Below, piece after piece: positions 2,524-64,000 of a stretch of 64,000 bases of DNA. The notes under the pieces were generated by a model. That model saw only the letters and a list, made by a program, of their open reading frames with translations. It was not told the origin of the DNA and did not search any database. Source of the DNA: a virus (Duplodnaviria; Caudoviricetes); IMG/VR virus record IMGVR_UViG_3300011517_000006, positions 1 through 64,000 of that record. The stretch is one strand, 5' to 3'. Each line of letters begins with the position of its first letter. The stretch's first letter is position 1. The translations under genes were made by a program, and so were the position numbers.

Positions 2524-2710
2524 TTGCGGGCAGGTCCTTCGCACGGTTAGGAGAACCCCTCTCGCGAGAGCGGGGCGGCGACCGGCCGGGCGGCCGATCG
2601 GTCCAGTCGTGCGGGGTCCTGCCCGCAGGTCGACGCGTTGGCGCGCGTCGATCCCGCCCCGGACGTGAGGCGGAATGGATGTTGGCGCACGGCGTGCGCG
2701 GGAGCAGACG

Positions 2711-41522: not shown

Positions 41523-43499
41523 ATGGCTTCCCCTGCCCTGCGCGAAATGCGCGAGGCCGACTTCCCGGCCGTCGTGCACACCTACACCGACGTCCTGCGC
41601 CTTCTGCGTGATCAGCCGCAAGGCGACGCGGGCCATCTGGCCCGCCTGACCGGCCGTGACGGCTCGAACGTCCGCCGCGACATGCACAAGCTGGTCGACG
41701 CCGGCGTCGTCCAACACGACGGGGCCTGCTGGATCCTGACCGACAAGGGCCGTCAATGGGTCGCCGGCCAGGACGTGGCCGAGGGTCTGATTTCGCCCGA
41801 CGGTTCCGCGGTTCCGGTCACCCGCTGTCCCATCGATCAGATCCGGCCCAACCCGGCCAACCGCCCGATCGACCCCGAGACCATTCCCGACCTGGCCCTG
41901 TCGATCATCGGCGCGGACGACGTGCTCCAGCCCCTGATCCTGACCCCGCCCGACGCGAACGGCGTGCGCATGATCCTGGCCGGCGAGCGTCGCTGGCGCG
42001 CTGTCCGCCACATCATGGAAACGGGCAGCACCCTGCCCGCCGCCCTGACGCCCGGCGTCCCCTTCGTCGAGCGCGAGGCGACCGAGGCCGAGGCTCTGCA
42101 GATCACCATCATCGAGAACAGCCAGCGCCAGGACCTCTCGCCATGGGAAGACGCCCAGCTGCTGCTGCAGCTGCAGGCCGCCACCGGCTGGAACGCCTCC
42201 GAGCTGGCCCGCAACATCGGCCGCGCGGCCGAGGGCGAACGCTCCGGGCTGCGCGACGTCCAGACCAAGCTGAAGGTCGCCCGCGAGGCCTCCCCCGCCG
42301 CCATCGCCGCCTATCTCGACAACGGCAGCTGGGACCAGCTGCGCAGCAGCGTCAGCCAGCCCAAGGCCACGACGCTCTCCGACCAGGTCGCCGAGTACGG
42401 CGCGGCCAGCCTCAAGCCCGGCGAACCCACCCCGCTTGAGCAGGCGATCGAGGAGGCGCAGCAGCTTTACACCGTCGCCGATTTCGGCGTCCCGGCCGAT
42501 TGGAAGGCCGACGACTTGGGCGCGGCGGCAGCCTGGCTGGAGACCGGCACCCTCGAGATGCTGACCTGCACTGACGGCAGGGTCAGCGCCACCATCTATG
42601 TGGCTCAGCTCAAAGGCGGCGCTTGCTGGCTGAACGGCACGTCGCACACCGCCGCGACGTCCGGCCACTCCTCCAGCCTGAATGGCGTCTGGAGATCCGC
42701 CGCCCCGGCCTTCGTGAGCCGGAAACGCGCGATTGAAGCGGCCGCCGCCTACCTCAAGCTCACCTACGGGGCGCACCTGACCAAGCGCATCCGGGATTGG
42801 CTCAGCGACCCAGAAGGCGCGCCGACCGGCCCCCATGTTGTAAACGGGATCGACTACGGCAACGCCACCCGCGCAAACGAAGCGCGCTACGCCGCCGGCA
42901 TCCTCCAGCGCCCGGCCGCCAACTACGGCTCAGCATCCCGCAGGGATCCGCCCGCGCCCGCCGCCGAACCCGGCGACGCCGACACGCCCGCGCCGGCGTC
43001 CTCCGCCCGCGAAGAACTGGCCGAACAACGCCTCGAGCGCCTCGGCGCGGCCCTGCAGGTCCTGACCGAGCGGCTCGAGCCCCTGCTCGCCGTCCTGCGC
43101 GGCGACCGCACCGACGACGGCCTGGTCACGCTCGAGACCGACGACGCCGAGTACTACGAGCGCGAGATCTCCGAGGCCTGTCAGTGGGCCGAGGACGCCC
43201 TGGCCGACACCAGCACCGTCTTCGACGGCTGGGGCGAGGAGACGCCGCGCCCGGACCTGGGCGCGCCTGCCGTGCCGATCCGCCAGTCGATCACGGCGGA
43301 CCACATCGTCTGTCTCGAGGACGGCCGCAAGTTCAAGTCGCTGAAGCGCCACCTGCGCACCCGCTACAACCTCTCGCCGGAAGAGTACCGCCGGCGCTGG
43401 GGTCTCCCGGCCGACTACCCCATGGTCGCGCCCAACTACGCCAAGGCGCGCGAGGATCTGGTCCGCCGGATGGCCCTCGGCCTGGCGGGGACGCGCTGA
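41523..43499 (+). CDS. wHTH - ParB (CTPase) - HTH - MucR/Ros zinc-finger fusion protein
   Basis: ParB box [10 protein letters not shown] and [14 protein letters not shown]; C-terminal [44 protein letters not shown]. Confidence 0.88.
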
Positions 43500-48401: not shown

Positions 48402-50030
48402 GTGATCCGCGTCGCCCTTTACGCTCGCTACAGCTCGGACCGACAGAACGAGCGCTCGATCTCCGATCAGTTGAGCCTCCTGATCCAGCACGCCGGCGCC
48501 AAGGGCTGGGCCGTCGTCGGCACCTACACCGACGCCGCCATTTCCGGCTCGGCCATGGCGAATCGCCCCGGGCTTCTCGCAGCGCTCGCTGCGGCCGAAC
48601 GGGGCGAGTTCGACCTGCTGCTGGCGGAAGACGAAGACCGTCTCGCCCGCAACCTGGAACACTTGGCGCACGTGGCCAACCGCCTGGCCGACATCGGCGC
48701 CGGCATCGCCACCCTGTCGACGGACCGGGTCCAGGACATGCACGTCGCCTTCAAGGGGCTCATCGCTCAGGACTTCATTCGCAACCTCAGCATGAAGACC
48801 AAGCGCGGTATGGCCTCCAATGCGGAGAAGGGGCTCGCGACCGGCTCGCGCCTTTACGGCTATCGCTCCCAGCCCGGCGGCGCGGTCGAGATTGTGCCCG
48901 ACCAGGCCGAGGTGGTCCGGCGCATCTTCTCCATGTACGTCAACGATCGCATGTCCTCGCGCGAGATCGCTGAACGCCTCAACCGCGACAGGATACCCTC
49001 TCCGGCCGGCCGGGAATGGAACGCCTCATCCATTCAGGGCTCGCGCCAGCGCGCCAACGGCATCCTGCACAGCGAGATCTACGCCGGCGTAAAGGTCTAC
49101 AACCGCGTCGAGATGCGAAAGGACCGCCAGACGGGGCGTAAGATCACGATCTGCAAGCCGCCCAGCGAGCACAAGCGCATCGACGTCCCCCACCTGGCCA
49201 TCATCGACCAGGACCTGTGGAACGCCGCCCGGCAGCGCCTGGACAGCCGGCAGACGGCCGACCCTTCGCAGCGCGCAAGCCTGCGGCGGCGCCCGGGCCT
49301 GCTGTCCGGGCTGACCAAGTGCGGCTGCTGCGGGGCGTCCTACACCTCACTCAGCCAGGGGCGCCTGGTCTGCGCCGCCTATCGTGAGAAGGGCGTGTCC
49401 GCCTGCAATAACAACCGCCACGTCAAGCGCGCCGAGATCGAGCAGCGCGTGCTGGACGGCCTGCGCACGCGGCTGCTGGCCCCCGAGGCCATCGCCGCCT
49501 ACGTCCGCGCCTATCACGCCGCCTGGGCCGAGCAGGCCGCCCAGGTCGAAGACCGCCGCCGCCCTCTGACGCGGCGGCTGGCCGAGGTCGAGCGCGCGAT
49601 CGAGCGCGGGGCCGAAGCCCTGCTCTCCGGTGCGACGGCGGCCGCCGTCATCGGCAAGAAGCTCGAAGCCCTCGAAATCGAACAGGCCCAGCTCAAGGCG
49701 ACCCTTGAACAGCTCGACGCTGAAGGCGCGCCGCCCGTGCAGCTGCACCCGCGCGCGGCCGAGAACTACGCCCGCAAGATCGAGCAGCTCCAGGCGCGCC
49801 TGGCCGAGGCGGCCGGCAGCACCGACGACGCGGACAGAGACCTGATCGGCAGCGTCAGGGGCCTGATCCAGAAGGTGGACATCGAGCCGATCAACAAATC
49901 GAGAGGATCGCCGGTGCGGGTCACCTTGCACGGTGACCTCGCCCGGTTCGTTCTCCCGCAACACCCACCAGCTAGTGGGTGTGCGTTGGTGGTTGGAGGC
50001 GGGATCGAACCGCCGACCTGTGGGTTATGA
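48402..50030 (+). CDS. int: Large serine recombinase (integrase of prophage 1)
   Basis: ALYARYSS catalytic Ser, DRLAR, recombinase domain, LLSGLTKCGCCG zinc ribbon, coiled coil; 3' end runs through the att core. Confidence 0.95.
   Translation: MIRVALYARYSSDRQNERSISDQLSLLIQHAGAKGWAVVGTYTDAAISGSAMANRPGLLAALAAAERGEFDLLLAEDEDRLARNLEHLAHVANRLADIGAGIATLSTDRVQDMHVAFKGLIAQDFIRNLSMKTKRGMASNAEKGLATGSRLYGYRSQPGGAVEIVPDQAEVVRRIFSMYVNDRMSSREIAERLNRDRIPSPAGREWNASSIQGSRQRANGILHSEIYAGVKVYNRVEMRKDRQTGRKITICKPPSEHKRIDVPHLAIIDQDLWNAARQRLDSRQTADPSQRASLRRRPGLLSGLTKCGCCGASYTSLSQGRLVCAAYREKGVSACNNNRHVKRAEIEQRVLDGLRTRLLAPEAIAAYVRAYHAAWAEQAAQVEDRRRPLTRRLAEVERAIERGAEALLSGATAAAVIGKKLEALEIEQAQLKATLEQLDAEGAPPVQLHPRAAENYARKIEQLQARLAEAAGSTDDADRDLIGSVRGLIQKVDIEPINKSRGSPVRVTLHGDLARFVLPQHPPASGCALVVGGGIEPPTCGL
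49975..50002. repeat. Right att junction of prophage 1
   Basis: attP arm GTGGGTGTGCGT followed by the 16-bp core shared with 1594-1609. Confidence 0.92.
49987..50030 (-). tRNA. 3' half of a tRNA with CAT anticodon (Met or Ile2); att fragment of prophage 2
   Basis: TCATAA-CCCAC-AGGTC-GGCGG-TTCGATC-CCGCC-TCCAACC-A-CCA; the 5' half is absent. Confidence 0.9.
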
Positions 50031-51203
50031 AGCCGCCGCGCCCGACCCCTTAGACGATTGTTCTTCCTCGCCCTTTTCCGGACCCTTGGGCGATGCTCCG
50101 GGACTATTCCGGGAGAGCGCCGCAAGCCCGGCTTTCACGTCGTCCTCGATCGCGTGGGCGTAAACCATCGTCGACTTGATGTCGGCATGGCCCAGGAGGC
50201 GCTGCGCCAGACGAAGGTTGCCGGTCTCCCGCAGGATCTGCATGCCGCTGTGGTGGCGCAGGTCGTGGATGCCCCGCAGGCCCTTGGCGTCCTTCAGCCC
50301 GGATCGCTTCATCGCCCGGCGCATGGCGATAGCGGCTCCAGAGGGCTTGAGCGCCTTCAGGATGACCTTCCCGGCCGGCCCGCGTAGGCGCCGCTCGCGA
50401 TACCAGACCGTTTCCAGCTTCGCGGCACGCGCCCGGCCAAGACGAGCCGATAGCATCGCCGCATCCTCGGGCAGCAGGGGGATGACGTGATCGTCGCCGC
50501 CCTTCCGATCTCGAAGGCGGACGCGGGCGTTGTTGATGTCGGCCACGTCGAGGTCGTCGAGCGAGAAGAACAGCTCCGACAGTCGACAGCCGTAGCGGGC
50601 GGCGAAGCGGATCAGGTCGTGCCAGTGGGGCAGAACCTCGGCCTCGACCCGCTCCAGCTCATCCCCGACGAGCTCCTTGGGCCGGGGCTTAGGCTCCTTG
50701 AGGCGCAGGGCCTCCCAGTCGATCTCCGGAAGCCTGGCGCCCCATGCCTTCCGTGCGCGGTTCAGGATCGGCCGGAGGGTGTCGATCATGTCCCGGTTCA
50801 CCGTCGAGTTCGACGGCAGGTATTCCTTCGCCCCCTTGGCCTTGGACTTCACGATGCCCTGGCCGCGGCGTCGCTCGATGGCGGTGGCGATGTGGTTGGT
50901 GGTGATGTCGCAGATGCGTGTCCCTGCCCCCACGACGGCCATCATGCGCTCGATCCGGGCTTCCAGACGGGCGCCGCCCTTCAGCGTCGTGCCGCGCTCG
51001 GCCCACCAACGGCCGGCGGCCTCGTCCAGGGTCATCTGCGAGGCGTCATCCAGTTCGCCCGTCGCCGCCTTGGTGCGGATGCGGCGTTCGACCTCCTCGG
51101 CCTTGCGCTTCGTCTCCACGCCGGTCGAGCCGTGGTAGCGCCTGCCCTTGTATTGGAAGTCGTAGGCCCAGTACCGGCTGTTCTTCGGCAGGTAGACGGA
51201 CAT
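50025..51203 (-). CDS. int: Tyrosine integrase of prophage 2
   Basis: YGCRLSEL, K(GG), HDLRH, LGH and Y catalytic set; N-terminal YDFQYKGRRY arm-binding-like segment. Confidence 0.93.
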   Translation of the reverse strand: MSVYLPKNSRYWAYDFQYKGRRYHGSTGVETKRKAEEVERRIRTKAATGELDDASQMTLDEAAGRWWAERGTTLKGGARLEARIERMMAVVGAGTRICDITTNHIATAIERRRGQGIVKSKAKGAKEYLPSNSTVNRDMIDTLRPILNRARKAWGARLPEIDWEALRLKEPKPRPKELVGDELERVEAEVLPHWHDLIRFAARYGCRLSELFFSLDDLDVADINNARVRLRDRKGGDDHVIPLLPEDAAMLSARLGRARAAKLETVWYRERRLRGPAGKVILKALKPSGAAIAMRRAMKRSGLKDAKGLRGIHDLRHHSGMQILRETGNLRLAQRLLGHADIKSTMVYAHAIEDDVKAGLAALSRNSPGASPKGPEKGEEEQSSKGSGAAAS

Positions 51204-51496
51204 CAGGGATCGACGCGATAGACGCGCGCACTAGGTAGGCCTGGAGGGCAAACCTTGTCCTCGATCCTGTAGATCGCCTCGCGCAAGGGCTGGACAGGAT
51301 CGGTGGCGTTCAGGATCTTGGCGACCGGAACGACTTCCTCTGCGAGCTTCTCCTCGCCGGTGCCGGGAGGCGGGTAGCCGCCTTCAATGATCACTGCTTC
51401 GGCGGTTCGACGGACGGGCCTAAAAGCTACGGCAGAATCCTTCATCTGGAACTCAGCGTCGTATATCGCGCCCTGGATAAGTTGGTCGTCGGTCAT
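51203..51496 (-). CDS. Hypothetical protein
   Basis: GGAGG-like SD; TGATG coupling to int. Confidence 0.55.
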   Translation of the reverse strand: MTDDQLIQGAIYDAEFQMKDSAVAFRPVRRTAEAVIIEGGYPPPGTGEEKLAEEVVPVAKILNATDPVQPLREAIYRIEDKVCPPGLPSARVYRVDP

Positions 51497-51509
51497 GTCC
51501 CTCAGCCTC

Positions 51510-51836
51510 CTAGCGTCCGGCCGTCTTCTTGCGCTGGCTGAACGGCACGACCTTGCTCTGGACGTGAACCGTCGGCCTCGGCTTCTCCTCGCGGACCGGG
51601 GCGTCAGCCTGCGTCAGATAACAGCGTATGTCACCCTCGGTGTAAGCGCGCCGCGCGCCGCGACGGACAGCACGGATCACGCCCTCCTCGGTCAGTTCGC
51701 GCAAGGTTCCGGCATCCATGCCCAGCAGCTTGGCGGCGGCCTGGGCGGTGATGATGCAGGCGTCAGCGAACGCCATCTGGATACGGCGCTCGGTGGCGGG
51801 GCCGATGGTGGCGACAGCGTCGTTAGCTGCGGTCAT
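51510..51836 (-). CDS. xis: Excisionase-like HTH protein
   Basis: ITAQAAAKLLGMDAGTLRELTEEGVI.AVRRG.RR.Y; close to int. Confidence 0.75.
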   Translation of the reverse strand: MTAANDAVATIGPATERRIQMAFADACIITAQAAAKLLGMDAGTLRELTEEGVIRAVRRGARRAYTEGDIRCYLTQADAPVREEKPRPTVHVQSKVVPFSQRKKTAGR

Positions 51837-52090
51837 GGTGCCCCCCTTGTCAGGAAATAGAGGCGGGCGGACGAAGGGCCGTCAAAGGTCTCGTCCTCAG
51901 CAATGCGCTTGATCAGCCCCTCGGCCTGAGAGAGCCGGGCCAGAACGGTGTTGATGGCCGCCTCATCTTCGCGGCGCGCGCGGGCTTCGGCGGGCGTCTT
52001 CGACTTCGTCGACATAGCGCCGAACCAGATCGCCATCCGGCCCAGACGCTGGACGGCGAGGGCGAGTTTGTCGTTTGCGACGGTGGTCAT
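51833..52090 (-). CDS. Hypothetical phage protein
   Basis: ATGA coupling. Confidence 0.6.
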   Translation of the reverse strand: MTTVANDKLALAVQRLGRMAIWFGAMSTKSKTPAEARARREDEAAINTVLARLSQAEGLIKRIAEDETFDGPSSARLYFLTRGAP

Positions 52091-52476
52091 TTCAGCACCT
52101 GATCGATCCAGGCGCTGACGTGCGCGGTCACGATCACCGCATCGCCGCCCGCCTCAACGCTGTTGCTGACCAGCAGGGCAATGTCTTTGTCGAAGCTCGG
52201 CTCTTCGGGGCGCAGGGCTGCGATGGCCGCGCGGGCGATCCTGATAGTGTCCGAAACCTGCTGCAGCATGCCGGGGTTGGTCTCGGCGTTCTCATAGGCG
52301 ACGTCGACGAACTGCTGCCAGGTCGGGTAGCCCGGCACTTCGTCTCCATCGACGTTGTGGATCACCGCGCAGACCCGCTCGATCACGTCGAAGCTGGCGC
52401 GCTCTTCCGGCGTCATGTTGTCGTTGCGGTGTTCGGGTGCGCTGGGCTTTCCGCCCTCGATGACGCGGAAAGTCAT
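52087..52476 (-). CDS. Hypothetical phage protein
   Basis: MTFRVIEGGK start motif; ATGA coupling. Confidence 0.62.
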   Translation of the reverse strand: MTFRVIEGGKPSAPEHRNDNMTPEERASFDVIERVCAVIHNVDGDEVPGYPTWQQFVDVAYENAETNPGMLQQVSDTIRIARAAIAALRPEEPSFDKDIALLVSNSVEAGGDAVIVTAHVSAWIDQVLK

Positions 52477-52592
52477 GGCTTCCATCCTTGGCGGGTGTTG
52501 TGAAACTGGCCGCAGCGGCGGCAGGAGCCCCACAGGGCGCCGGGGCTGAGCGGGACGTGGCCGAGGAAGAAGCAGAGGAGCTGCCGAATCAT
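52473..52592 (-). CDS. 39-aa Cys/His zinc-finger-like protein (not in the ORF track)
   Basis: MIRQLLCFFLGH...SCRRCGQF; ATGA coupling on both sides. Confidence 0.62.
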   Translation of the reverse strand: MIRQLLCFFLGHVPLSPGALWGSCRRCGQFHNTRQGWKP

Positions 52593-52948
52593 CGCGTAGC
52601 GGCCTTGATGATGGCGTAGGTGCGCGGGCACTCTCGCGCGCCCCAGCGATTAATCGCTCCGTTCATCTGCTCCTCCTTGAAGGCAGCAGTCGCTTCATCC
52701 CAAACGCGCGCCAGCCGAGCCCAGATCACATCGTTTTGGCCGAGCCGATCAACCGCCTCTCGCGCCTCTGGCGCTGCCAAGACAAGCCGGTAGCAGCGTC
52801 CAAAGTCGCTGGTGTCGCGAGGATGATGGGGGTTGCGGACTGCGATGCCGCACGTCTCGCGGGCGAGGTCCTTGGACGATAGGCCCACGTCGTCGCTGAG
52901 CGCCCATAGGGCAACTGCAGCCTGTATCTCACGGAGCGATCTGGTCAT
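52589..52948 (-). CDS. Conserved-looking hypothetical phage protein
   Basis: HPRDTSDFGRCYRL motif. Confidence 0.68.
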   Translation of the reverse strand: MTRSLREIQAAVALWALSDDVGLSSKDLARETCGIAVRNPHHPRDTSDFGRCYRLVLAAPEAREAVDRLGQNDVIWARLARVWDEATAAFKEEQMNGAINRWGARECPRTYAIIKAATR

Positions 52949-53073
52949 GCGGAGAGCCTCAGCAGGAGTTCGCAGAAGCCCATGCTCCCGACGCCGATGG
53001 CGCCGCCCAGCACGATGAGCTTCCAGATGGGGGTGTTGTGGTGGGCTGGGTTCGACCAGGAGCGGCGGATCAC
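52945..53073 (-). CDS. 42-aa single-TM protein
   Basis: IWKLIVLGGAIGVGSMGFCELLL; GTGA and ATGA coupling. Confidence 0.5.
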   Translation of the reverse strand: MIRRSWSNPAHHNTPIWKLIVLGGAIGVGSMGFCELLLRLSA

Positions 53074-54446
53074 TGGCCGCCCTCCGGCTGAGCCCCGCCG
53101 TCGCCCAGCGCATCACCCATGAAGAACTTGGCCACCAAAGGCGTGATCGGCAGGTCGAGAACCCGGATGGCGTTAGCGACAGCGGAGCGGATCAGGTTCG
53201 CCGCGTCGTCGGCATCGTCGGAGGCCCCGTGCTGGACGGCATGCAGCTGTCCCATCGCCGCGACCAGCTGGAAGGCGACGCCGCCCTTGCTCGCGGGGGT
53301 CATGCGCAGGGCGGCGCTGGGGATGGCCGACAGGTCGTGGTCAGCGCGGGAATAGGCCAAGATCTCCCTGGGGTGCAGGGCGGTCGCGTTGCTCGCGTCG
53401 TGCTTCTCGAACGTGCTGAGAGCGTCGAGCATCTCGCCCGAGAGATCCGCGACCGCGCAACCGGCGGGCAGCGGCGCCGGGATACGGCCCATGCGCCGCG
53501 CGTCCTGCACAACCTGCTCCGCAAAGCTCAGAGCGTCGCGCTCGCCGGTCCACTCTTGGCTGAAGACCTGAGCCTTGAATGCAAGAGCTTCAGGCGTCTC
53601 GGCCGGCGTCGAGATGAGTGTTGCGACCGCTTCGTTGACCGCCCGCAGCGCAGCATCCTCTTCAGTTCGAAGCGCGACCAGCCCCAGTTCCTCCCCGAGG
53701 GCGGTCCGGTCCTTCTGGAACTGCAGGAAGACCGCCGCCTTGTCTGCCGCTTCTTCTGGGGTGAGCTTGGGATCGTCACCCCACGGCGCATGGACCGCCT
53801 GCTCGATGGACTGGACCGAAAGGTAATACCGGCGATCAGGGCCAGATCGTCGCAAGGCGTCGGGCCAAGGGCGGCGCTGACCCAGCTCAGCTTCAGCCGA
53901 ACTCAGGGCGGCTTGGGCCGCCTCAGAACGCCGCGCGGCAGCGAGATAGGCGTCGCGGGCGGCGTCCCATTCAGGCGACGCCCCGTCGCGATCCGCCCAG
54001 TCCTTGATAGCGACGTAAGCCGCGAGCAGACCATCACGCGCATCGTCGTGGTTCAGGTCTGTGACCGCTTGTTCGCCGCAGGAAAGGACATAGGCGCCGA
54101 TCCGCTTGACCATCGACGCGGGCTCGGCAGGGGGCAGGAACAGCAGGCGGTGGCCGAGGTCGCCGACGCGCTTATGCTCAGCGTGCCAGGCCTCAAACTC
54201 GGCCGTCTCGTCGTCACCCCGCGCATCGACAGCGCAGCACTCGTCCCAGAGCGCGGTAAGGCGTGGCTGCGCGTCCTCAATCGCCTGGATCAAGTCGCCC
54301 TCAGACATGGCGATGATCTCAGGTGAATCGTCAGGGGCGGCGGCATCGAAGGTCGCGACAGCCTCAGCGGCGTTCACGGCGTTTCGGGCAGCAGTCATCG
54401 CTCCCGCGCCGGTAGTGATAATCGGTTTTGTAATGGTGGCGCTCAT
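53070..54446 (-). CDS. Hypothetical helical protein
   Basis: Long ORF with phage codon usage; TPAETPEALAFKA-type motifs. Confidence 0.7.
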   Translation of the reverse strand: MSATITKPIITTGAGAMTAARNAVNAAEAVATFDAAAPDDSPEIIAMSEGDLIQAIEDAQPRLTALWDECCAVDARGDDETAEFEAWHAEHKRVGDLGHRLLFLPPAEPASMVKRIGAYVLSCGEQAVTDLNHDDARDGLLAAYVAIKDWADRDGASPEWDAARDAYLAAARRSEAAQAALSSAEAELGQRRPWPDALRRSGPDRRYYLSVQSIEQAVHAPWGDDPKLTPEEAADKAAVFLQFQKDRTALGEELGLVALRTEEDAALRAVNEAVATLISTPAETPEALAFKAQVFSQEWTGERDALSFAEQVVQDARRMGRIPAPLPAGCAVADLSGEMLDALSTFEKHDASNATALHPREILAYSRADHDLSAIPSAALRMTPASKGGVAFQLVAAMGQLHAVQHGASDDADDAANLIRSAVANAIRVLDLPITPLVAKFFMGDALGDGGAQPEGGQ

Positions 54447-54892
54447 CACGTAGCCGCCCTCTGCGAGGCGCGACGCGCCTTGAGGTTTCTCAGAGCCGTG
54501 GCGACCCCATCCGCGTTCACCGCAAGGGAGTGGACGCGATAGCTGATGCCGGGCGCGCGCCTCTCAGCTGCTTCCAGCCAGTTGAGCAGCCGAATGCCTT
54601 CATCGAGCACGGCGTCGGGCATGAGGTAAGCAAAGCTGCTTCCGCTCTCGCAGCGGATGTCGCAGCCAGCGCGACGATACGCGGACAGCCATTGCCGCTC
54701 TTCCCAAAGAGCTGGGCGTGGTTCTTTCCCGAAGTAGGGGAACAGATCCAGACCGACCAGCGCCAGGCGGCGTGCTTCGCGTAGATCGGCCTGGGAAGGC
54801 TTCGCCACGACCGGGATGCCAGCGGCTAGATCCGTTTCAAAATCGGTAGGCGGCAAATCCGCACGCGCTTCAGTGTTGGCAAAAGCCTGCAT
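54446..54892 (-). CDS. Hypothetical protein, first gene of the leftward early operon
   Basis: GAGGAG SD before MQAFANTE. Confidence 0.6.
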   Translation of the reverse strand: MQAFANTEARADLPPTDFETDLAAGIPVVAKPSQADLREARRLALVGLDLFPYFGKEPRPALWEERQWLSAYRRAGCDIRCESGSSFAYLMPDAVLDEGIRLLNWLEAAERRAPGISYRVHSLAVNADGVATALRNLKARRASQRAAT

Positions 54893-54925
54893 GGCGTTCT
54901 CCTCGGTGTGCGCGAACGATGACAA

Positions 54926-54960
54926 AGTGTGCTCATTGATGCAAGCACATTTTGTGCTTT
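54926..54960. promoter_or_regulatory. Operator region (OL analogue) of prophage 2
   Basis: AAGCACA-ttt-TGTGCTT palindrome 54943-54959; TGTGCTCATT shared with the cI/cro region. Confidence 0.6.
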
Positions 54961-55067
54961 CCTTGCTTGGGGCGTTTCTTCGAGACGCCATTATCGGTCG
55001 CAGAGCTACCCGCGGTCGTTGACTCTTCACTCCCCTAAAGGCCCCTTGCGGTAGTGAAGGAGTGGCC

Positions 55068-55301
55068 ATGCAGACCATCTATCGTGTGCAGACTTACCGC
55101 CGTCAGGGTCGACGCCTGGAGGCCGGGCAAATGCATCAGTTCGCCGATGAGGCAGCAGCGAGAGCCGCTGGGATTTCATTGTCTGGCAAGGCGGCGGGGG
55201 TCGTCGTCTATGCAATCAGTGGGGAACCAGAAGCCGACTTTTGGGACGAGCCGATGTTGCTGTCTCGGCATGGAGTCGCTCCTGAAGATCGGGAGGTCTG
55301 A
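55068..55301 (+). CDS. Hypothetical protein
   Basis: AAGGAG SD; coupled to the exonuclease gene. Confidence 0.65.
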   Translation: MQTIYRVQTYRRQGRRLEAGQMHQFADEAAARAAGISLSGKAAGVVVYAISGEPEADFWDEPMLLSRHGVAPEDREV

Positions 55302-56198
55302 ATGGGATTTCTGTCGAAGCTGTTCGGGTCGCCATCGAAGCCAGCCGCGCCATCTCCGATCTCGGCATGGAGCGTAGACTTTGTGGTCGTCGACGTTGAA
55401 ACAGCCTGCTCTCGCTCCAGCAGCATTTGCCAGATCGGGATCGTAGGCTTCCGCGAGGGCAAGGAGGTCGAGGCATTCGAAACCCTCGTTGATCCGCGCG
55501 ACGAGTTCGATGATTTCAACGTCCGCCTTCACGGGATCGGTCCGAACCACGTCCGAGGCCGACCGACATTCTCCGCTCTTCACTCCGTCGTAAACGCGCG
55601 CCTCGGCGGTCAGATCACCGTGGCTCATTCGAGCTTCGATAAAGGCGCGCTTGCGTCGGCCTGCGAGCGCCACGCTCTACCGAACATTTCAACTACATGG
55701 CTTGATAGCGTCATGGTTGCGCGAAGGGCCTGGCCTGAGCTGTCCAGTCACCGGCTGAACCTCCTGGCGGACTATCTTGGGATAGAGCATCGACACCACG
55801 ACGCGCTCAGCGATGCGCGCGCTGCCGGGATGGTGATCGTGAAGGCAATTGATCACACCGGCCTAAGCCTAGCCGACTGGCTGACGCCGCGCGCTCACGT
55901 GGTGCCTTCTCTCAAGCGCGCAGGCGGGGCGGGACCGCTCGCTGGGCACAGCGTGTCATTTACAGGCGAGTTTTCAGTAACCAAGGCAGAACTCGCCGAC
56001 CAACTGGCGGCCGCTGGTGCTGCGACGACCCCTGGGCCGACGAGGAAGACGACGATTTTCGTGGTCGGACAGCAGGACCCAGCGTCGCTGGCCGGGAAGG
56101 CAAAAAGCAACAAGCACCTCAAGGCCGAAATGCTTCTTGCCTCTGGCCAGCACATCCAGATTGTGGACGAGGCCGGCCTTCGAAAGCTGATGTCTTAG
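55302..56198 (+). CDS. DEDDh 3'-5' exonuclease fused to a BRCT domain
   Basis: VVVDVET, AHSSFD, DS and HHDALSDA motifs; C-terminal SVSFTGEF...AAGA..T..PTRKTTIFVVG. Confidence 0.88.
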   Translation: MGFLSKLFGSPSKPAAPSPISAWSVDFVVVDVETACSRSSSICQIGIVGFREGKEVEAFETLVDPRDEFDDFNVRLHGIGPNHVRGRPTFSALHSVVNARLGGQITVAHSSFDKGALASACERHALPNISTTWLDSVMVARRAWPELSSHRLNLLADYLGIEHRHHDALSDARAAGMVIVKAIDHTGLSLADWLTPRAHVVPSLKRAGGAGPLAGHSVSFTGEFSVTKAELADQLAAAGAATTPGPTRKTTIFVVGQQDPASLAGKAKSNKHLKAEMLLASGQHIQIVDEAGLRKLMS

Positions 56199-56782
56199 CG
56201 CGGCCGCATGTTGGTGACGACCGCGGCCCACTCCACAGTCTGGTCCGTCAGGGTGGGCTCGTTGCTATTACTGTCGAGATGGAAAAGGCCGTTGGCTGCG
56301 GGACGCAGGCGCTTAACCAGCACCCTCCCGTCGGCCAGGCCCACGACACAGAGCCTGTTGAACATGTCGGGTGTCACTGGCGAGCGCACATCGTCGTAGA
56401 AGACCAGCCAGTTGTCCAGCACAGGACCCAAGCTGTCGCCGCGGATTTCCGCAGCCACCGTCTTGGGACCAGCATTGTCGGGAGCAGCCACGTAGTCGAG
56501 GTTGCCCTGCCCTTCCGAATACAAGACCGCCGCCGATCCGGCGGCCACGTAGCCGACGACTGGAACTTGCCGATGTTCTGCGTCAGCCCCGCTCATCTCG
56601 AGCTCTGAGGGTTTCATGAGCAGGGCGAGCGCGACTCGCTCCACGTCCGCTCTGGTGGGCTCCGTCCTATTCCGCTCCCACGACGATATCGTCGTCTGCG
56701 CCGTCCCAACGGCTAGGGCTAGCGCTCTTTGCGACATTCCTTTGGCCTGCCTGGCCCGAGCGATGCGATCCCCGATCTTCAT
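56195..56782 (-). CDS. cI: CI-like repressor of prophage 2 (XRE HTH plus S24)
   Basis: MSQRALALAVGTAQTTISSWE; VAAG; IRGDSL; VKR. Confidence 0.9.
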   Translation of the reverse strand: MKIGDRIARARQAKGMSQRALALAVGTAQTTISSWERNRTEPTRADVERVALALLMKPSELEMSGADAEHRQVPVVGYVAAGSAAVLYSEGQGNLDYVAAPDNAGPKTVAAEIRGDSLGPVLDNWLVFYDDVRSPVTPDMFNRLCVVGLADGRVLVKRLRPAANGLFHLDSNSNEPTLTDQTVEWAAVVTNMRPR

Positions 56783-56827
56783 GGCGGGAACGTGCCGCTG
56801 CACACTGGCGGCGTCTAACGACAATAT

Positions 56828-56855
56828 GTGCTTGTCACAAGCACGCTTTGTGCTC
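56828..56855. promoter_or_regulatory. Operator region (OR analogue) of prophage 2
   Basis: GTGCTTGT-c-ACAAGCAC perfect dyad overlapping AAGCAC-gcttt-GTGCTC. Confidence 0.65.
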
Positions 56856-56866
56856 ATTATGGCCTC

Positions 56867-57115
56867 ATGCGAAGCCATAGCCAGATTGTTCGAGATTTCG
56901 GCGCCGCCGGTCTTCACCGGGCCTTGCGTGCTCGGGGCCATGTTATTCATCCGTCGACTCCGCAGCGGTGGGCTGAACGAAACTCCATCCCCGGGGGATT
57001 TTGGGCCGACTTCGTCGATATCGGCGCCTCAACGCTGAAAGAACTGGCCGACGCCGCCCGCCAGGGGGCGGGCTGTGGCGACCGTCAGCGCGAAACCGAC
57101 CGCGGGGCCGCCTGA
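56867..57115 (+). CDS. Cro-like protein of prophage 2
   Basis: Divergent from cI; TPQRWAERNSIPGGFW motif. Confidence 0.72.
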   Translation: MRSHSQIVRDFGAAGLHRALRARGHVIHPSTPQRWAERNSIPGGFWADFVDIGASTLKELADAARQGAGCGDRQRETDRGAA

Positions 57116-57359
57116 TGCAACGCCCCTCTCGCCTTCTCCCGCTGCTCCTGAGCCAGACGCCACCACTTCGGGTCGCGCGTCTCCCGCGCCGCGACGCTGC
57201 AGGCTCCGGCCGCAACTCCATGGCGGATCGCCCGCAAGATTTCTGCGGACGGCTCCGGTCCGCTGTTCGCCCTGTCCAACATCTCAACCTCCAATCCTGT
57301 GAGGCGACATTCGGCCAACGCCGGTCGCCCGTCACCTTGCATGCACAAGGCTCTTGGCA

Positions 57360-57803
57360 ATGAACGACTTCTCCCCCGCTCTTCTGAAGGCGCACTTCGG
57401 CCAGCTGGTCGACGCCGTCGGCACCCAAGAAGCGGCCGCCGCATTCCTCGGCGTCAGCCGTCAGCGCGTCGGCCAGTTGATCAGCACGGCGAACAACGAC
57501 CTGCCGACCTGGGCGCAGGTGTGGAAGCTGGAAAAGGTGACGGGACAATCGCTGGTCTTCGGCGCGTTCGGTCGCATGACGGCGGGCGAAGAGGCCCACA
57601 CCGGCGCCCTAACCGCTGCAGTCGAAAGCACCGCCACGGCGACCCGCGCCCTTCAGGCCGTCCACGCGGCCAAGGCCGATGGCGTCATCGAGCAACACGA
57701 GGTCGAGGCTGTGCGCGACGCGGCGCGAGACAACCTGATCGCCGCCCAGCGCCAATACGACGAGAGCATGCGCTTGCGCTCGACAGCGGGAGCTGATGCA
57801 TGA
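57360..57803 (+). CDS. CII-like regulator
   Basis: AAAAFLGVSRQRVGQL HTH; position after cro. Confidence 0.6.
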   Translation: MNDFSPALLKAHFGQLVDAVGTQEAAAAFLGVSRQRVGQLISTANNDLPTWAQVWKLEKVTGQSLVFGAFGRMTAGEEAHTGALTAAVESTATATRALQAVHAAKADGVIEQHEVEAVRDAARDNLIAAQRQYDESMRLRSTAGADA

Positions 57804-58804
57804 TCCAGATCGACCGGATCACGACCTTCGACCGCGTCCGTCAGGCGGATCGCAAGCAGGTTGAAGCCTTGGCGGAAAGCATCCGCGAGGTCGGGCTGCT
57901 CAACCCCATCGCGGTGGCGCCGGATGGCGAGGGCTATGCCCTGATCGCCGGGATGCACCGGCTGGAAGCTGCGCGCCTGCTCGGCTGGACGGAAATCCCG
58001 GCCACCGTGCTGGCGCTGGATCAGCATCGCCGGATCATCGCCGAGTGCGACGAAAACCTGTGCGCGCCGTCCCTGACGCCCGCCGAACGCGCTGAGTTCA
58101 CGCGCCGCCGTAAGGCTGCATATGAGGCGCTGCACCCGGAGACGCGGGCTGATGCGCCAAAGGGCAATCAATATGCTTCTCGCCAAGTTGGCGACAAGCA
58201 ACCGGCGCCCCGCTTCACCGCCGATACCGCCGCCGCCACGGGCCAATCTGAGCGGGCCGTTCAGCGCGACGCCGAGCGGGGCGAGAAGGTCTCTGACGAA
58301 GCTCTGGCGCTGATCAAGGGGACCCGCCTCGACACCGGGCGCTACCTCGACAGCATCAAGAACCTGTCGCCCGCGGATCAGGTGGCGAAGGTGGAAGCGG
58401 ACCTGACACCGCCCTCTGAAGGCGTCGAAAAACGGGACACGCACCCCGCCGAACCTGTCGAGCCCATCGACCCCGCCGAAGCCAAGGCTCGTCGCGAGAT
58501 CGCCCAACTCCCCGACGAGGCCAAGGTCGACGAGATCGTCGGCCTACGCGCTGAAGTCATCGACCTCCGCAAAGCGGTCAAGGAACATAAAGCCAACACC
58601 GCCAGGCTGAAAACCCAGTTGAAGGGCCACGAGGGCGACAAGGACGACACGATCCGGGCGCTCCAAAGGAAGCTGGACCACGCGAACAGCGAGATGTTCC
58701 GCGCCAAGGAGGAGGCTGCGCGCGTCCTTCGCCACAACCACGTCCTGAAGAAGGAAATCGACAAGCTCAAGGCTGAGATCGAGAACCAGGTGTTCCAGCT
58801 TTGA
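57800..58804 (+). CDS. ParB N-terminal domain protein with coiled-coil tail
   Basis: LAESIREVGLLNPI, LIAGMHRLEA, ECDENL.....LTPAE. Confidence 0.85.
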   Translation: MIQIDRITTFDRVRQADRKQVEALAESIREVGLLNPIAVAPDGEGYALIAGMHRLEAARLLGWTEIPATVLALDQHRRIIAECDENLCAPSLTPAERAEFTRRRKAAYEALHPETRADAPKGNQYASRQVGDKQPAPRFTADTAAATGQSERAVQRDAERGEKVSDEALALIKGTRLDTGRYLDSIKNLSPADQVAKVEADLTPPSEGVEKRDTHPAEPVEPIDPAEAKARREIAQLPDEAKVDEIVGLRAEVIDLRKAVKEHKANTARLKTQLKGHEGDKDDTIRALQRKLDHANSEMFRAKEEAARVLRHNHVLKKEIDKLKAEIENQVFQL

Positions 58805-59052
58805 GCATCGTCGAGCGCATCAGAGCCCATGGCGGCGAGGTCGGACGGGACCGCTGGAACATCAGCCTCCGCAAGGGACGGCTGGATGCGACGGCGCTCG
58901 CCTGGATCGCGAAGCACCGGGGCCAGCTGATGCGCGAGATCTGGCCTGAATACGACGCCTTCGAAGAGCGCGCCGCCATCATGGAGTACGACGGCGGGCT
59001 GCCCCGACAGGAGGCTGAGCGCGCCGCATACCGGGAGGTGTGCGGATGCTGA
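58801..59052 (+). CDS. Hypothetical phage protein
   Basis: FEERAAIMEYDGGLPRQEAE motif. Confidence 0.7.
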   Translation: MSIVERIRAHGGEVGRDRWNISLRKGRLDATALAWIAKHRGQLMREIWPEYDAFEERAAIMEYDGGLPRQEAERAAYREVCGC

Positions 59053-60614
59053 CGTTCGTCGACGCCAGGGAGATTGCTCTGCGGCCCTATCAGGGATCGG
59101 TGGTTGAGCGGCTGCGCGAGAAAATCCGGCAGCGCATCAAGCGGCTGATCCTGTGCGCCACGACCGGCGCGGGGAAGACGCTGATCTCGGCTTACCTGAT
59201 CAAAGAGGCGGCGAAGAAGGGCAGCTATGTGCTGTTCATCGTCGACCGCGTCGCCCTCGTGGAGCAGACCAGCGCCGTCTTCGATGAATACGGTATCCCC
59301 CACGGCATCGTACAGGGCATCCACCAACGGTGGGCGCCGCGCGAAAACGTGCAGGTCTGTTCGGCCCAGACGCTCGCTCGCCGCAGCCTGCCGCGCGACC
59401 CCGACCTGATCATCGTCGATGAGGCACACTGCCAGTTCAAGGCCACGATCGAGTTCATGAACCGCTATCCAAACGCGGTGAAGATCGGCCTGACGGCCAC
59501 CCCGTTCACCAAGGGCATGGGCCAGCACTGGGACGGCATGGTCAACGCGGTTTCGACCCGTCAGTTGATCAACGACGGCTTCCTGGTCGAGCCCAAGATT
59601 TTCGTCGCCAAGAGCCCCGGCGACAGCGAGCTGGGTCGCAACAGCTTCGGCGAGTTCAGTGACCAAAGCGCCGCAGACGCCGGGATCAAGATCGTCGGCG
59701 ACGTGGTTCAGGAATGGATCGCCAAGACGCGCGAGCACTTCGGCGGGCCGGTGAAGACCATCGTATTTAGCCCGACAGTCGAGCATGGGCGCGAGCTATG
59801 CGCCGCCTTCGCCGCCGCCGGGTTCAACTTCCAGCAGATCAGCTATCTCGACGACGAGGACGAGCGGATGGAGCGGATCGCCGAGTTCCGCCGCCCCGAC
59901 AGCTTGATCCACGGCCTGATTTCCTGCGGCGTCCTGACCAAGGGTTTCGACGTGCCCGACGTTCGGGTCGGCATCTCCTGCAAGCCCTATCGCAAGAGCC
60001 TCTCCAGCCACATGCAGGAGATCGGCCGCGTGATGCGATCGCATCCCGGTAAGGACGTGGCCCTTTGGCTCGATCACTCGGGCAACTTCGAGCGGTTCGC
60101 CCTGGACATGTACGACGTCTGGGAGAACGGGGCGGGCGAACTGGATAAGGCCGAGAAGCGCGACAGCGTGGCCCGGGAGCGGAACCAGAAGGCCAGAGAA
60201 AAGGTCGTCTGCCCCGAATGCTCAGGCGCCCTGCGCGGCACGACCTGCACCGCCTGCGGCTGGGAGAAGCCCGCGCGGTCGGGCATCCAGGCCGTCGAGG
60301 GCGAACTGCGCGAATTTGATGCGGGCGCGATGGGGATGGAGGCGCGTCCGGGGCTTCGCGCCGAATGCCTGAAGAACCCCAAGGCGGTGTATAACGCTGC
60401 GCTCTGCTACAGTATCGACCAAAGCCGCAGCGGTGACTGTGAGGCCGCCCGGAAGCGCGCATATGCCATCTGGCGCGGGGTCTACCCGAGCAGCAAGCCG
60501 CCCTATCACTGGTTCGACATGGCGACGGTCGCTCCCGACGCCGGAGCCTATGCGCTGGTGGATCGCGAGGTCCTGCGGTTCCGCAAGCAGAGCAAGATGC
60601 GGAGGGCTGCATGA
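59046..60614 (+). CDS. SF2 DEAD/DEAH helicase with C-terminal zinc finger
   Basis: TGAGKT, DEAH, TAT, KGFD, QEIGRVMR; CPEC...CTACG. Confidence 0.92.
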   Translation: MLTFVDAREIALRPYQGSVVERLREKIRQRIKRLILCATTGAGKTLISAYLIKEAAKKGSYVLFIVDRVALVEQTSAVFDEYGIPHGIVQGIHQRWAPRENVQVCSAQTLARRSLPRDPDLIIVDEAHCQFKATIEFMNRYPNAVKIGLTATPFTKGMGQHWDGMVNAVSTRQLINDGFLVEPKIFVAKSPGDSELGRNSFGEFSDQSAADAGIKIVGDVVQEWIAKTREHFGGPVKTIVFSPTVEHGRELCAAFAAAGFNFQQISYLDDEDERMERIAEFRRPDSLIHGLISCGVLTKGFDVPDVRVGISCKPYRKSLSSHMQEIGRVMRSHPGKDVALWLDHSGNFERFALDMYDVWENGAGELDKAEKRDSVARERNQKAREKVVCPECSGALRGTTCTACGWEKPARSGIQAVEGELREFDAGAMGMEARPGLRAECLKNPKAVYNAALCYSIDQSRSGDCEAARKRAYAIWRGVYPSSKPPYHWFDMATVAPDAGAYALVDREVLRFRKQSKMRRAA

Positions 60615-61531
60615 CCCTGTCGCTGACGGAAGCGCTGCATCAGGCCTGTGCGGTGGTAGGCATCGAGCCGCCCAAGCGTCGGCTGTCCCCGGGCCAGTGG
60701 GTGCGCACGGACACCAAGGGCAAGAACGGCCGCGACGACGCCGCCGTCCTGATCTTCGACGACGAGAACGGCGGCATGGTCTGGAACCACCAGACCGGCG
60801 CCAATCACCGCTTCAGCCTTGCCGGGTCTGGCCAGGTGCGCCGCGATCCCGAAGCTGAACGCCGTGCCCGCCGTCGCGAGGCCGCCCGGCTAGCCGAGCA
60901 GCAAGAGGTCGAGCGGATCTGCGCGGCCATCGTGCGCGGCTGCCGCCAAGACAAGCATCCCTATCTGGAGAAGAAGGGCTTCCCTGACGAGCTGGGGCTG
61001 GTCTGCGACGTGCCCAGCAAGTTCTTCCCTGAGACGCCCTTCGGCGAAGCCCTGGCCAAGGCTCTGCCGGGCATCGGCCCCTTCCTGATCGTTCCCGGCC
61101 GCATCGGCGGCAAGGTTACGACGGTGCAGTTCATCACCGCCGACGGGGCGAAGAAGAACATCCTGCGCGGAGCCCAGGGCGGCGCCAGCCACAGGATCGC
61201 CACAGGGCGCGATACGTGGGTGTGCGAGGGCATCGCCACGGCCCTGAGCGTCAGGGCGGCCCTGCGGCTCCTGGGGGTGTCTGCGACCGTTCTGAGCGCC
61301 TTCTCGGCCTCTAACGTGGAGAAGGTGGCTGCGGGCATCCCTGGCGCTCGCATCGCGGCTGACCACGACGCCCCGAACCCGCATCTCGAGGGCAAGGGCG
61401 CAGGCGAGTTCTATGCGCGCCGCTCGGGCTGCGCATGGACCATGCCGCCGTCCATCGGCGACTTTAACGACATGCACATGGAGCGCGGTCTGAGGGCCGT
61501 CGCACTGCATCTCAGGGAGGCGCTGGGATGA
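60611..61531 (+). CDS. Toprim-domain primase
   Basis: HPYLEKKG, VQFI, VCEGIATA, IAADHD and GDFND motifs. Confidence 0.85.
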   Translation: MTLSLTEALHQACAVVGIEPPKRRLSPGQWVRTDTKGKNGRDDAAVLIFDDENGGMVWNHQTGANHRFSLAGSGQVRRDPEAERRARRREAARLAEQQEVERICAAIVRGCRQDKHPYLEKKGFPDELGLVCDVPSKFFPETPFGEALAKALPGIGPFLIVPGRIGGKVTTVQFITADGAKKNILRGAQGGASHRIATGRDTWVCEGIATALSVRAALRLLGVSATVLSAFSASNVEKVAAGIPGARIAADHDAPNPHLEGKGAGEFYARRSGCAWTMPPSIGDFNDMHMERGLRAVALHLREALG

Positions 61532-61544
61532 CGTGATGCAGGAT

Positions 61545-61995
61545 CATTTCGCGATGTGTTTCTCGCGAGCAATCAGGCGACGGCTAGGGCCGAAACCTGA
61601 TCGGCATGGGGATGGTAAGGCCCCGGTGTGCGCGCCGAAAGCGCACGAGATAGGCCCTCTGCAAGTAGCACCCGCTCTGATGTGTGGCGGAAGCGAACGG
61701 GTCACGAAACACCAGCCGCCTTACCCACACAGGACGCACCCGCAAGAGGTGCAGCCGCGTACGTCTCGCCATCGAATGACGTGCAATGCGGTGCCGCCAG
61801 GTCTCCGGAAGGAGAGCGAAGCGACGGCCATGGATCGACAGCCTGACCCCGATCCAGCGCAGACCAGCGCGAGCCGATTTGATGGAGTGTTACTGCGTGT
61901 CCCAGATGACCCTCAGTTCAGAAACACACTTCGTCCCATAGCAGGGCGAAGTGTGCCCAGCGGAACCCGAGAGCCCTAGTTCAGAAACTAGTTCA
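61545..61995 (+). ncRNA. Candidate structured non-coding RNA (or hairpin-rich origin)
   Basis: At least eight stem-loops including GCAA and GGAA tetraloops; the overlapping ORF looks spurious. Confidence 0.45.
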
Positions 61996-62015
61996 ACAAG
62001 GAAAGGAGAGCAGTA

Positions 62016-62291
62016 GTGGTCGCTAAGAAGAAGCTCAGCCGGAAGGAGCGTGAAGCTTCACGCGAAGAGGCTGCTCGGCGGTTTGACGAAATCGCCTCCC
62101 TCGTCAGCGAGGCCAGAAAGAACGACGAGATTGGATCGCATTACAGCCTTTGGATCGACCAACACCGGCGCGTCGAGTGGTGGCCTGGAGCTCAGCACTG
62201 GCGTTGCAGCACCCAGACGGATCACTTCGGCCCAATGGATGATTTGCTGACGTGGCTTCGGTCTGAGACCGCTCCAGGCCGGAGCATTTGA
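62016..62291 (+). CDS. Hypothetical protein
   Basis: AAGGAG SD; GTG start. Confidence 0.6.
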   Translation: MVAKKKLSRKEREASREEAARRFDEIASLVSEARKNDEIGSHYSLWIDQHRRVEWWPGAQHWRCSTQTDHFGPMDDLLTWLRSETAPGRSI

Positions 62292-62295
62292 CCTG

Positions 62296-62502
62296 ATGGT
62301 CGAGCGCATCACGCTCATGCAGCAGTACGCCGTGAACGAGCAGCGGCGCCGGGGGAGAACGGACCGTCAGATCGAGAAGATCGTCGGCCTTCCCCACGGC
62401 ATCCTCTCTCGCCGCTTCATCGTCGTCGACGACCGCGACCCCCTCCCCCGGCGAGGCCCCAGCGCCAGCCCCCGCACCCTTCACCGATACACCCTGTTCT
62501 GA
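62296..62502 (+). CDS. Hypothetical small protein, possible HTH
   Basis: RTDRQIEKIVGLPHGILSR. Confidence 0.5.
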   Translation: MVERITLMQQYAVNEQRRRGRTDRQIEKIVGLPHGILSRRFIVVDDRDPLPRRGPSASPRTLHRYTLF

Positions 62503-62516
62503 AAGGCCCTCCCCTC

Positions 62517-63296
62517 ATGGGCAAAGCCACCAAACCCCGCCTGAACCCCCGCTCCAAGGGCGGTCGCCCCCGTCAGCAGGGCGAGCGCACCAAGGGCGGA
62601 CGCCTGAAGCACGCCCCGAACGAACGCGTCCTGCAGATGCGGGCCATCTTCGGCGTCGACCACATCGGCCAGGCCTTCTCCCCCATCCAGATCGCGCTGA
62701 GGAACGGCTGGCTGAGCGAAGCCGACTGCCGAACCGCCGCCGAGTTCGCATCGCTTTACGCCGCCGCCGGTATGGGTCGCAGCAGCATCAGCCTGTCGGC
62801 TGGCATGGAGGTGAAGCCGGGAGCGGATACGTCGGGCGATGTGACCGCCGCGTCGTTCTTCGCCACCCTGCCGGATCGTGAGGTCGCCGAGATCTGGGAC
62901 GCTGTGTTCACCGACGATGGCGGCCCTGCTCTGGGTCGAGAAGAGGCCGCAGCCCGCGCCATGAAGCGCTGGAAGCTGGCCTGCGCCGCCATGTCGCCCG
63001 ATCAGCGCGAAGAGGTGCACAACGTCTGCATCCTCGACAGCTTCCCGCAGTGGATCATCCAGCGGGCGCACGGGCACATGGAGACGAGCTGGGAGAGGAA
63101 GCGCGACCTGCTGATCGCCGGTCTACGCGCTATTCGGGCAGAGCTTCATCCGCCCAAGGGGAAGCCGGAGAAGCAGCCGGAAACAGCGGTCGCGTCTCCC
63201 CGTCCCCGAGCCCAGGTCGAGCGCACGGTCTATGTCGATGAAGACGGCGAACCCCTGTTGGAGGTCGAGCGCGTCGTCCGTCGACCAGCGGCTTGA
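62517..63296 (+). CDS. Hypothetical phage protein (late-regulator position)
   Basis: Typical codon usage; lies between the replication and packaging genes. Confidence 0.65.
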   Translation: MGKATKPRLNPRSKGGRPRQQGERTKGGRLKHAPNERVLQMRAIFGVDHIGQAFSPIQIALRNGWLSEADCRTAAEFASLYAAAGMGRSSISLSAGMEVKPGADTSGDVTAASFFATLPDREVAEIWDAVFTDDGGPALGREEAAARAMKRWKLACAAMSPDQREEVHNVCILDSFPQWIIQRAHGHMETSWERKRDLLIAGLRAIRAELHPPKGKPEKQPETAVASPRPRAQVERTVYVDEDGEPLLEVERVVRRPAA

Positions 63297-63491
63297 CAGG
63301 CGGATCGAATAGGAAGATAAGCCTAGGTGCAGTTATGTCAGGGTGGCACGAAATCCTGACCGAGAGACCCCGGAGCATCATGCGGCCGGGGTTCTTCGTA
63401 TCCGGCTCCCTTAAGGGCGAGAGGGCGGCAGGCTTAGGGTTGGGGGTTCCCGGCCGGGTCGGCCGTCTGCCCCCTTGGGCACACCATCATC

Positions 63492-63818
63492 ATGATCATC
63501 AGGAGCTCCGGACCAATGATCGGGAACACCGAAGACTTCCTCGTGCGCGCTGCTGATGCTGAGGCCAAGCCCATCGAGACCCTGACGGTCAAGCTGGCTG
63601 TGGACAGCGAGGCGTTTGAAGGCGCGATCAAAGCCGCTCTCGCAGAGGCCGGGCGTTCAATCGTGGGGGATCGCCCCATCACCATCATCTCCAGTCGGAA
63701 GGGCCTCGCCGTCAGTGTCGGCGGCCGACACATCGGCTTTGTAGCGGGCCAGGATAGCAGCACCCTGCACATCGCTGTTCCCCATGGCCTGACGAAAACC
63801 GTTGGCCCGTCGTCCTGA
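63492..63818 (+). CDS. Hypothetical protein
   Basis: ORF with plausible composition; start uncertain. Confidence 0.45.
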   Translation: MIIRSSGPMIGNTEDFLVRAADAEAKPIETLTVKLAVDSEAFEGAIKAALAEAGRSIVGDRPITIISSRKGLAVSVGGRHIGFVAGQDSSTLHIAVPHGLTKTVGPSS

Positions 63819-64000
63819 CCGCATCGCCGCCCAAGGCACCCAGCGCCTAAGAGGCCGCAGAGGCGTAGAGCAACGCAAGCGCCGCCTCGCCGCCGAGCCC
63901 CTGTGCAGGGATTGCATGGCCAAGGGGATCATCACCGCCTCGACGGTGCCCGACCACATCATCCCGCTGAGCCAGAACGGCCGAGACACCGACGACAACA
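63802..64000 (+). CDS. HNH endonuclease (partial, packaging-associated)
   Basis: EPLCRDC...TVPDHIIPLSQNGRDT.DN; TTG start inferred; truncated by the window end. Confidence 0.82.
   Translation, partial: MARRPDRIAAQGTQRLRGRRGVEQRKRRLAAEPLCRDCMAKGIITASTVPDHIIPLSQNGRDTDDN

Follow-up and report, generated by a model that had tools for sequence, protein, structure and literature searches.

The integrase gene at 48402-50030(+) of the 64,000-nt stretch of viral DNA analysed here (hereafter the window) raises the question of whether a phage recombinase can hold its attachment site inside its own reading frame, such that the protein ends differently before and after integration, and what such a change of ending would do. 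An initial annotation had placed the att core within this reading frame and proposed that the C-terminus of the integrase switches with the integration state. The ORF list, Pfam and a homologue search identify the gene in its present form as the 542-aa prophage isoform of a large serine integrase. It carries the Pfam domains Resolvase (PF00239), Recombinase (PF07508) and Zn_ribbon_recom (PF13408), the architecture of a large serine recombinase with an N-terminal resolvase, a recombinase domain and a zinc ribbon with coiled-coil insert. The protein matched homologue P0001 at 100%, and 311 homologues were found at E<=1e-20.

A 16-bp core, whose sequence is that of the tRNA 3' acceptor end plus CCA read in antisense, occurs in exactly two copies in the window, at 1594-1609 (attL) and at 49987-50002 (attR). 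When the prophage ends were joined in silico, the result was a 46-bp attP in which two perfectly matched inverted arms of 18 bp flank a 10-bp centre (symmetry centre between 49997 and 49998). The P arm (49975-49992) lies within the integrase ORF, and the viral tail has its first six residues encoded in the P' arm (1610-1627), the inverted repeat of the P arm. No 18-bp arm symmetry was found in attL, attR or the rebuilt attB. The rebuilt attP fits the serine-integrase type in being short (~50 bp), in having inverted arms and in sharing a 16-bp core with the tRNA. Between the cores (1594-50002) lies a lambda-like siphovirus prophage of ~48.4 kb, recognised by its portal, terminase, protease and tail genes; the inter-core 48.4 kb encodes a lambda-family portal, gpA terminase, S49 protease, tape measure and tail tube. 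The prophage further includes a very long ORF in the tail region (7002-13802(-), 2266 aa) and, at 41523-43499(+), a 658-aa protein in which Pfam detects an N-terminal ParB domain and a C-terminal ROS/MucR domain, an unusual fusion in a prophage.

The predicted empty attB junction was matched exactly in 22 contigs, 21 of which are labelled Brevundimonas, and the chromosomal side of attL, a few bases together with the core, matches these empty-site contigs. An intact tRNA-Met was present at all of the empty attB sites examined (8/8). The junction matches thus identify Brevundimonas as the host genus and bear out a precise insertion. An exact search of public viral contigs for the predicted attP junction of the window phage gave no match. 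A search for the displaced tail remnant in the closest provirus records, at their far end, matched no more than the internal arm or the methylase, these records being trimmed.

Taken alone, one exact 16-mer repeat would be no great surprise in 64 kb of GC-rich DNA, and the core could have been a chance repeat or an att site of another element, with the integrase end unrelated to it. However, the repeat coincides with both the tRNA 3' end and the integrase end, rebuilds a perfect palindrome with 18-bp arms, encloses a complete phage gene set and predicts an attB junction present in 22 contigs, and the two tail states described below recur in hundreds of homologues. A chance origin thus appears exceedingly improbable, and we rejected it on the attP palindrome and the attB junction.

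Sequences 3' of tRNA-Met in the eight compared Brevundimonas empty sites (within L085-L104) diverge beyond ~6 nt from the tRNA, which suggests, as far as these flanks can be compared, repeated turnover of integrated elements at a Brevundimonas tRNA-Met hot spot. As these flanks differ, the comparison gave no support to the reading of the window's left flank as the ancestral chromosomal neighbour.

The tRNA in the window is a 3' fragment of tRNA-Met(CAT), 45 nt from the anticodon loop to CCA (49987-50031(-)), and not an intact gene. It was recognised by its identity to intact Brevundimonas tRNA-Met, which extends from the CCA to the anticodon loop only and is followed by the 3' end of a tyrosine integrase. 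ARAGORN called no intact tRNA either in the window or in the 24 kb that complete the 88.5-kb record. The tyrosine integrase (50025-51203(-), Pfam Phage_integrase) belongs to a second, stacked element and ends with a TAA stop (50025-50027) in the same anticodon loop; it is because this element abuts the tRNA that no more than 45 nt at the tRNA 3' end are left. One tRNA-Met has thus received two elements, one stacked on the other, with the serine-integrase phage next to the displaced 3' fragment. L006, a relative at 93% identity that comes from a different isolate, shows the same integrase stack. The argument about the isoforms is unaffected by the truncation, because the fragment includes everything up to the stop.

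Three further features of this junction were observed. Within the anticodon loop, the TAA stop of the tyrosine integrase and the TGA stop of the serine integrase overlap in a span of 6 nt. The second element, which spans 50025-64000 of the window and continues in the rest of the record (64001-88475; L002/L003), leaves the record end without an intact tRNA. In an ordinary lysogen of the family, transcription of the integrase would cross the 3' half of tRNA-Met in antisense (49987-50030).

The two forms of the gene were then compared at the level of the protein. In the prophage, the final 8 residues and the stop are supplied by the antisense strand of tRNA-Met, and the stop itself (TGA, 50028-50030) is the antisense of U33-C34-A35 in the CAT anticodon loop; the initial annotation had likewise put the stop in the anticodon loop. 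In the excised form, rebuilt by joining the ends in silico, the frame reads through into 1610-1658 and yields a protein of 549 aa with the C-terminus VKLAV and the stop at 1656-1658. The translations and the two-copy core therefore agree with the proposed placement of the core inside the ORF and with a 542-aa prophage form against a 549-aa excised form. Translation of the rebuilt form also locates the displaced 3' remnant of the integrase at 1611-1658(+), comprising 15 viral-tail codons and a stop; the final nine of these codons (1629-1655), with VKLAV at their end, fall beyond the att arms. An in-frame stop is present upstream of the remnant (1578-1580), so that in the lysogen the remnant does not lie within a long ORF.

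Comparison of these in silico translations shows that, on integration into tRNA-Met, the integrase gene is cut at the core, so that the prophage copy loses 15 viral residues and gains 8 tRNA-encoded ones, up to a TGA that is present in the antisense of every tRNA-Met anticodon loop. The exchange concerns the last 15 of 549 residues only and keeps every Pfam domain. Given that the gene is cut at the core on integration, the integrating enzyme is always the viral isoform and the excising enzyme always the tRNA-tailed isoform.

The stop of the excised form (1656-1658) lies one base from the convergent stop (1660-1662) of a D12-class N6-adenine DNA methyltransferase (1660-2796(-); PF02086, E 1.3e-21), as had been noted earlier. 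The accompanying proposal of a designed gene end did not hold up as a general feature and was dropped: the neighbours 3' of 17 viral-form loci vary in strand and distance, and tight convergence is thus not general.

To place the window phage among its relatives, both tails were surveyed in homologues. Among the 120 best homologues (49-100% identity), 68 had a tRNA-derived tail and 45 a longer, non-tRNA viral tail, and in 2 the tRNA was read in another frame; few source names are attached to these 120, namely Caulobacter and Phenylobacterium. A search with 50%-identity representatives returned the same split into two tail forms, and the same design was seen in 79 viral-contig loci down to 32% identity. 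ARAGORN called an intact tRNA beside 18 of these 79 loci, and in 17 of the 18 it was a tRNA-Met overlapping the integrase stop. One lineage (L024) targets tRNA-Ser(GCT) instead.

Several lines of evidence indicate that the two tail forms are two states of one gene and not two subfamilies. The forms are interspersed, such that the nearest neighbour of each viral-form protein is a tRNA-form protein. The viral-form P0064 and the tRNA-tailed L009 share 99.6% identity over 520 residues and part ways only once the core-encoded glycines are passed. Further substantiating this, palindromic arms were found in the viral-form loci with their centres 36-63 nt upstream of the stop, and the isolated Rhizobium phage RR1-A carries a viral-form integrase. 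By these sequence comparisons, the att-in-gene design is common to hundreds of related phages. The proposed integration-state switch of the integrase C-terminus is thus real and kept across a very large serine integrase family. In addition, the natural occurrence of near-identical integrated and non-integrated forms, together with the empty sites, implies that the integrase is probably active both in attP x attB integration and in excision.

Departures from the common arrangement were also recorded. Several members (L082, L046, L018, L024 and the P0170/P0172/P0192 class) use other tRNA frames or earlier stops, for example -CGGRI ends or a stop in the T-loop, and the att-in-gene design persists through these changes of frame and target. 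One 95.7-kb provirus record, IMGVR_UViG_2814123113_000001, contains two family integrases (L065 and L012). One of them is tRNA-tailed and lies at the record end; the other lies mid-record and has a viral-type tail and no core palindrome (score 10/21). Such an arrangement might have arisen where tandem prophages formed a hybrid junction.

The question then arises whether the exchanged tail matters for the protein. In an AlphaFold (AF2) model of a viral-form member (mean pLDDT 83.5), long helices (361-441) lie between the zinc-ribbon region and the final strands, and residues 520-549 have a pLDDT of <50. The C-terminal stretch coded by the P arm, core and P' arm is accordingly predicted to be a disordered linker. 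In the window phage, the opening six residues of the tail are dictated by DNA: they are encoded in the P' arm, in mirror image of the P-arm codons.

One account of these features is that an attP in the 3' end of the integrase gene keeps enzyme and site together as one mobile module, and that the change of tail is a by-product without effect on stability or activity. The linker and the early tail are indeed set by the tRNA core and the mirrored arms, and their predicted disorder may tolerate any sequence. Members with other frames or T-loop stops evidently work as prophages, and the same advantage of a single module has been proposed for archaeal integrases with an att site in their gene (PMC8371274).

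The outer tail, beyond the att arms, behaves differently. It is the conserved portion, and the remainder of the tail diverges. Across the family, the viral tail extends 17.3 +/- 2.4 aa past the core glycines, compared with a median of 52 codons to the stop (range 4-244) in the other two frames; a neutral run-on should vary like those frames. For the window phage alone the tail length is unremarkable, as stops occur after 10 and 16 codons in its other frames. Viral tails follow the end pattern aliphatic-(R/K)-aliphatic-(A/R)-(A/V/L). Ends of the type aliphatic-[ARVSLG]-[AVL] made up 65% of unique viral tails and 6.6% of background ORF ends, although this and the other tail statistics were computed from related sequences and a crude ORF-end background, so that their p-values are inflated by non-independence. 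All four alanine codons are in use for the terminal Ala of viral tails, which speaks for selection at the level of the protein and not of the DNA. The separation from tRNA-derived tails is incomplete, since -RL ends occur among some of these too. The survey of attP-encoded and tRNA-antisense tails that had been proposed with the switch found length and terminal residues to be conserved in the viral tails. A tail change without effect is difficult to reconcile with an outer tail whose length and aliphatic/Ala end are kept to ~35% identity, with synonymous codons and far above background. The module advantage accounts for the position of attP, but not for the conserved outer tail, and we consider a by-product without effect rather unlikely.

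A candidate function for the outer tail is that of a proteolysis signal. The ssrA tag is known in engineered variants ending LAA, LVA, AAV and ASV. The two-piece tmRNA of Brevundimonas was not called by ARAGORN; it was located with Rfam RF01849 and its tag read by translation. This host tag ends in VRLAA, and the viral tail of the window phage in VKLAV; relatives end in VKIAV, IRIAV, VRIAA and similar. Tag and viral tail are alike in presenting a short, exposed C-terminal end of aliphatic residues and Ala, whereas the viral tail is encoded in the genome and ends in Val and the ssrA tag is added by tmRNA. Consistent with a degron, the C-terminus with its LAA-type end (here LAV) is exposed and unstructured in the model (pLDDT <50 at 520-549). 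A strict ssrA-end pattern was found in 9 of 48 unique close-family tails and 3 of 100 distant ones, compared with 0 of 502 background ends.

Other observations speak against a degron. The terminal residue is Val here and not Ala, and the strict pattern occurs in a minority of viral tails, many of which end in -RA or -RL; to our knowledge, these are not established ClpX motifs. The earlier suggestion that the viral tail is a Clp degron hence stands in part: the kept tail length, the aliphatic/Ala end, the predicted disorder and the likeness to VRLAA lend it indirect support, but the Val terminus and the minority share of the strict pattern weaken it. Weighing both sides, we give about an even chance to the viral tail being a protease degron that is removed by integration.

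If so, the viral tail would mimic the end of the host ssrA tag and serve as a ClpXP/ClpAP-type degron, and integrase made from unintegrated DNA would be short-lived. Lysogenisation might then depend on the protease load of the host, as in BPs-type phages. The prophage isoform, which is without the tag, would persist for excision.

Alternatively, the tail motif may act within the recombination complex, for instance by docking as a strand and so favouring attP x attB synapsis, by blocking attL x attR or by binding a directionality factor, in which case the isoforms would differ in directionality and not in stability. The earlier wording of a recombinase that senses directionality finds no support in these results. 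By construction, each isoform is restricted to one direction. The alternating aliphatic and basic pattern could make a short strand, and DSSP assigned one at 544-548 of the AF2 model, with low confidence. However, the tail makes no confident contact in the monomer model (pLDDT 33-45), its motif resembles the host ssrA end specifically, and no data link it to a directionality factor. A role in controlling recombination therefore seems improbable to us, and we return below to the possible degron.

In known systems, integration changes the expression or the integrity of a phage gene in several ways. Integration of lambda parts sib, a 3' element, from int, and sib acts on mRNA stability via RNase III. 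In both lambda and the window phage, the expression of int thus depends on whether the DNA is free or integrated; sib leaves the protein unchanged, whereas in the window phage the protein sequence itself is altered.

In the SSV-type 'suicidal' tyrosine integrases of archaea, the site is likewise part of the integrase gene, which integration splits and inactivates; this type has been described as exclusive to archaea (review PMC8371274). The window phage shares with them a recombination site within the recombinase's own gene and a compact integrase-att module. Unlike in the SSV type, the site lies in the last ~50 nt of the gene, a disordered tail is exchanged and the folded domains are retained, and the window integrase is thus not fragmented and inactivated.

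The closest precedent for the proposed control comes from mycobacteriophages. In BPs and in phages of clusters G, I, N and P, attP lies inside the repressor gene, and integration removes an ssrA-like tag from the viral repressor (Broussard et al. 2013; Villanueva et al. 2015, PMC4557955). This literature confirms the attP-within-gene precedent named in the initial annotation. Moreover, the integrase of BPs-type phages has a C-terminal proteolysis signal of its own, which sets the frequency of integration and lysogeny (Villanueva et al. 2015, PMC4557955). BPs and the window phage both place attP within a coding frame. They differ in which gene is split: in BPs it is the repressor, and the tyrosine integrase keeps a constant tag, whereas in the window phage attP lies within its own large serine integrase gene and not within a repressor gene. 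In addition, the family of the window phage has Proteobacteria as hosts, the replacement tail and stop come from the antisense of tRNA-Met, and no effect on immunity is implied. The viral tails, with their aliphatic-A/R-A/V ends, resemble the end of the host tag and are removed by integration; they may be a counterpart of the BPs tag. By analogy, the family would merge the BPs ideas, placing an integrase tag beyond the integrase's own attP.

A similar prophage has been described in Paracoccus aminophilus, vB_PamS_Pami6, a siphovirus with a serine recombinase that is integrated in tRNA-Met(CAT) (PMC6536676). Going by its published description, it resembles the window phage as an alphaproteobacterial siphovirus prophage with a serine recombinase in tRNA-Met(CAT); the paper gives the integration site only and mentions neither an attP within a gene nor two isoforms. 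No serine integrase whose frame contains attP, or whose tail depends on integration, was found described in the literature that we searched.

Together, these comparisons lead us to propose a protein-level memory of the integration state in a widespread clade of proteobacterial serine integrases, in which a labile viral isoform with a mimic of the host ssrA tag would only integrate, a stable tRNA-tailed isoform would only excise, and host protease capacity would gate lysogeny without a repressor. We put this full scheme forward tentatively, at somewhat below even chances.

Even if the tail is not a degron, the results imply that bacterial integrases can hold an att site in their own gene, a design which, in its gene-splitting form, the review assigns to archaea only, and that integration and excision are performed by different isoforms in these phages. 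This also matters for the mining of genome-engineering tools, since the prophage-derived sequences that make up most of the family in databases are not the integrating protein. If the viral tail is a degron, integration-dependent control, known from the repressors of actinobacteriophages, would also act on the recombinase, and this throughout a very large family of proteobacterial phages in which the protease status of the host would set lysogeny.
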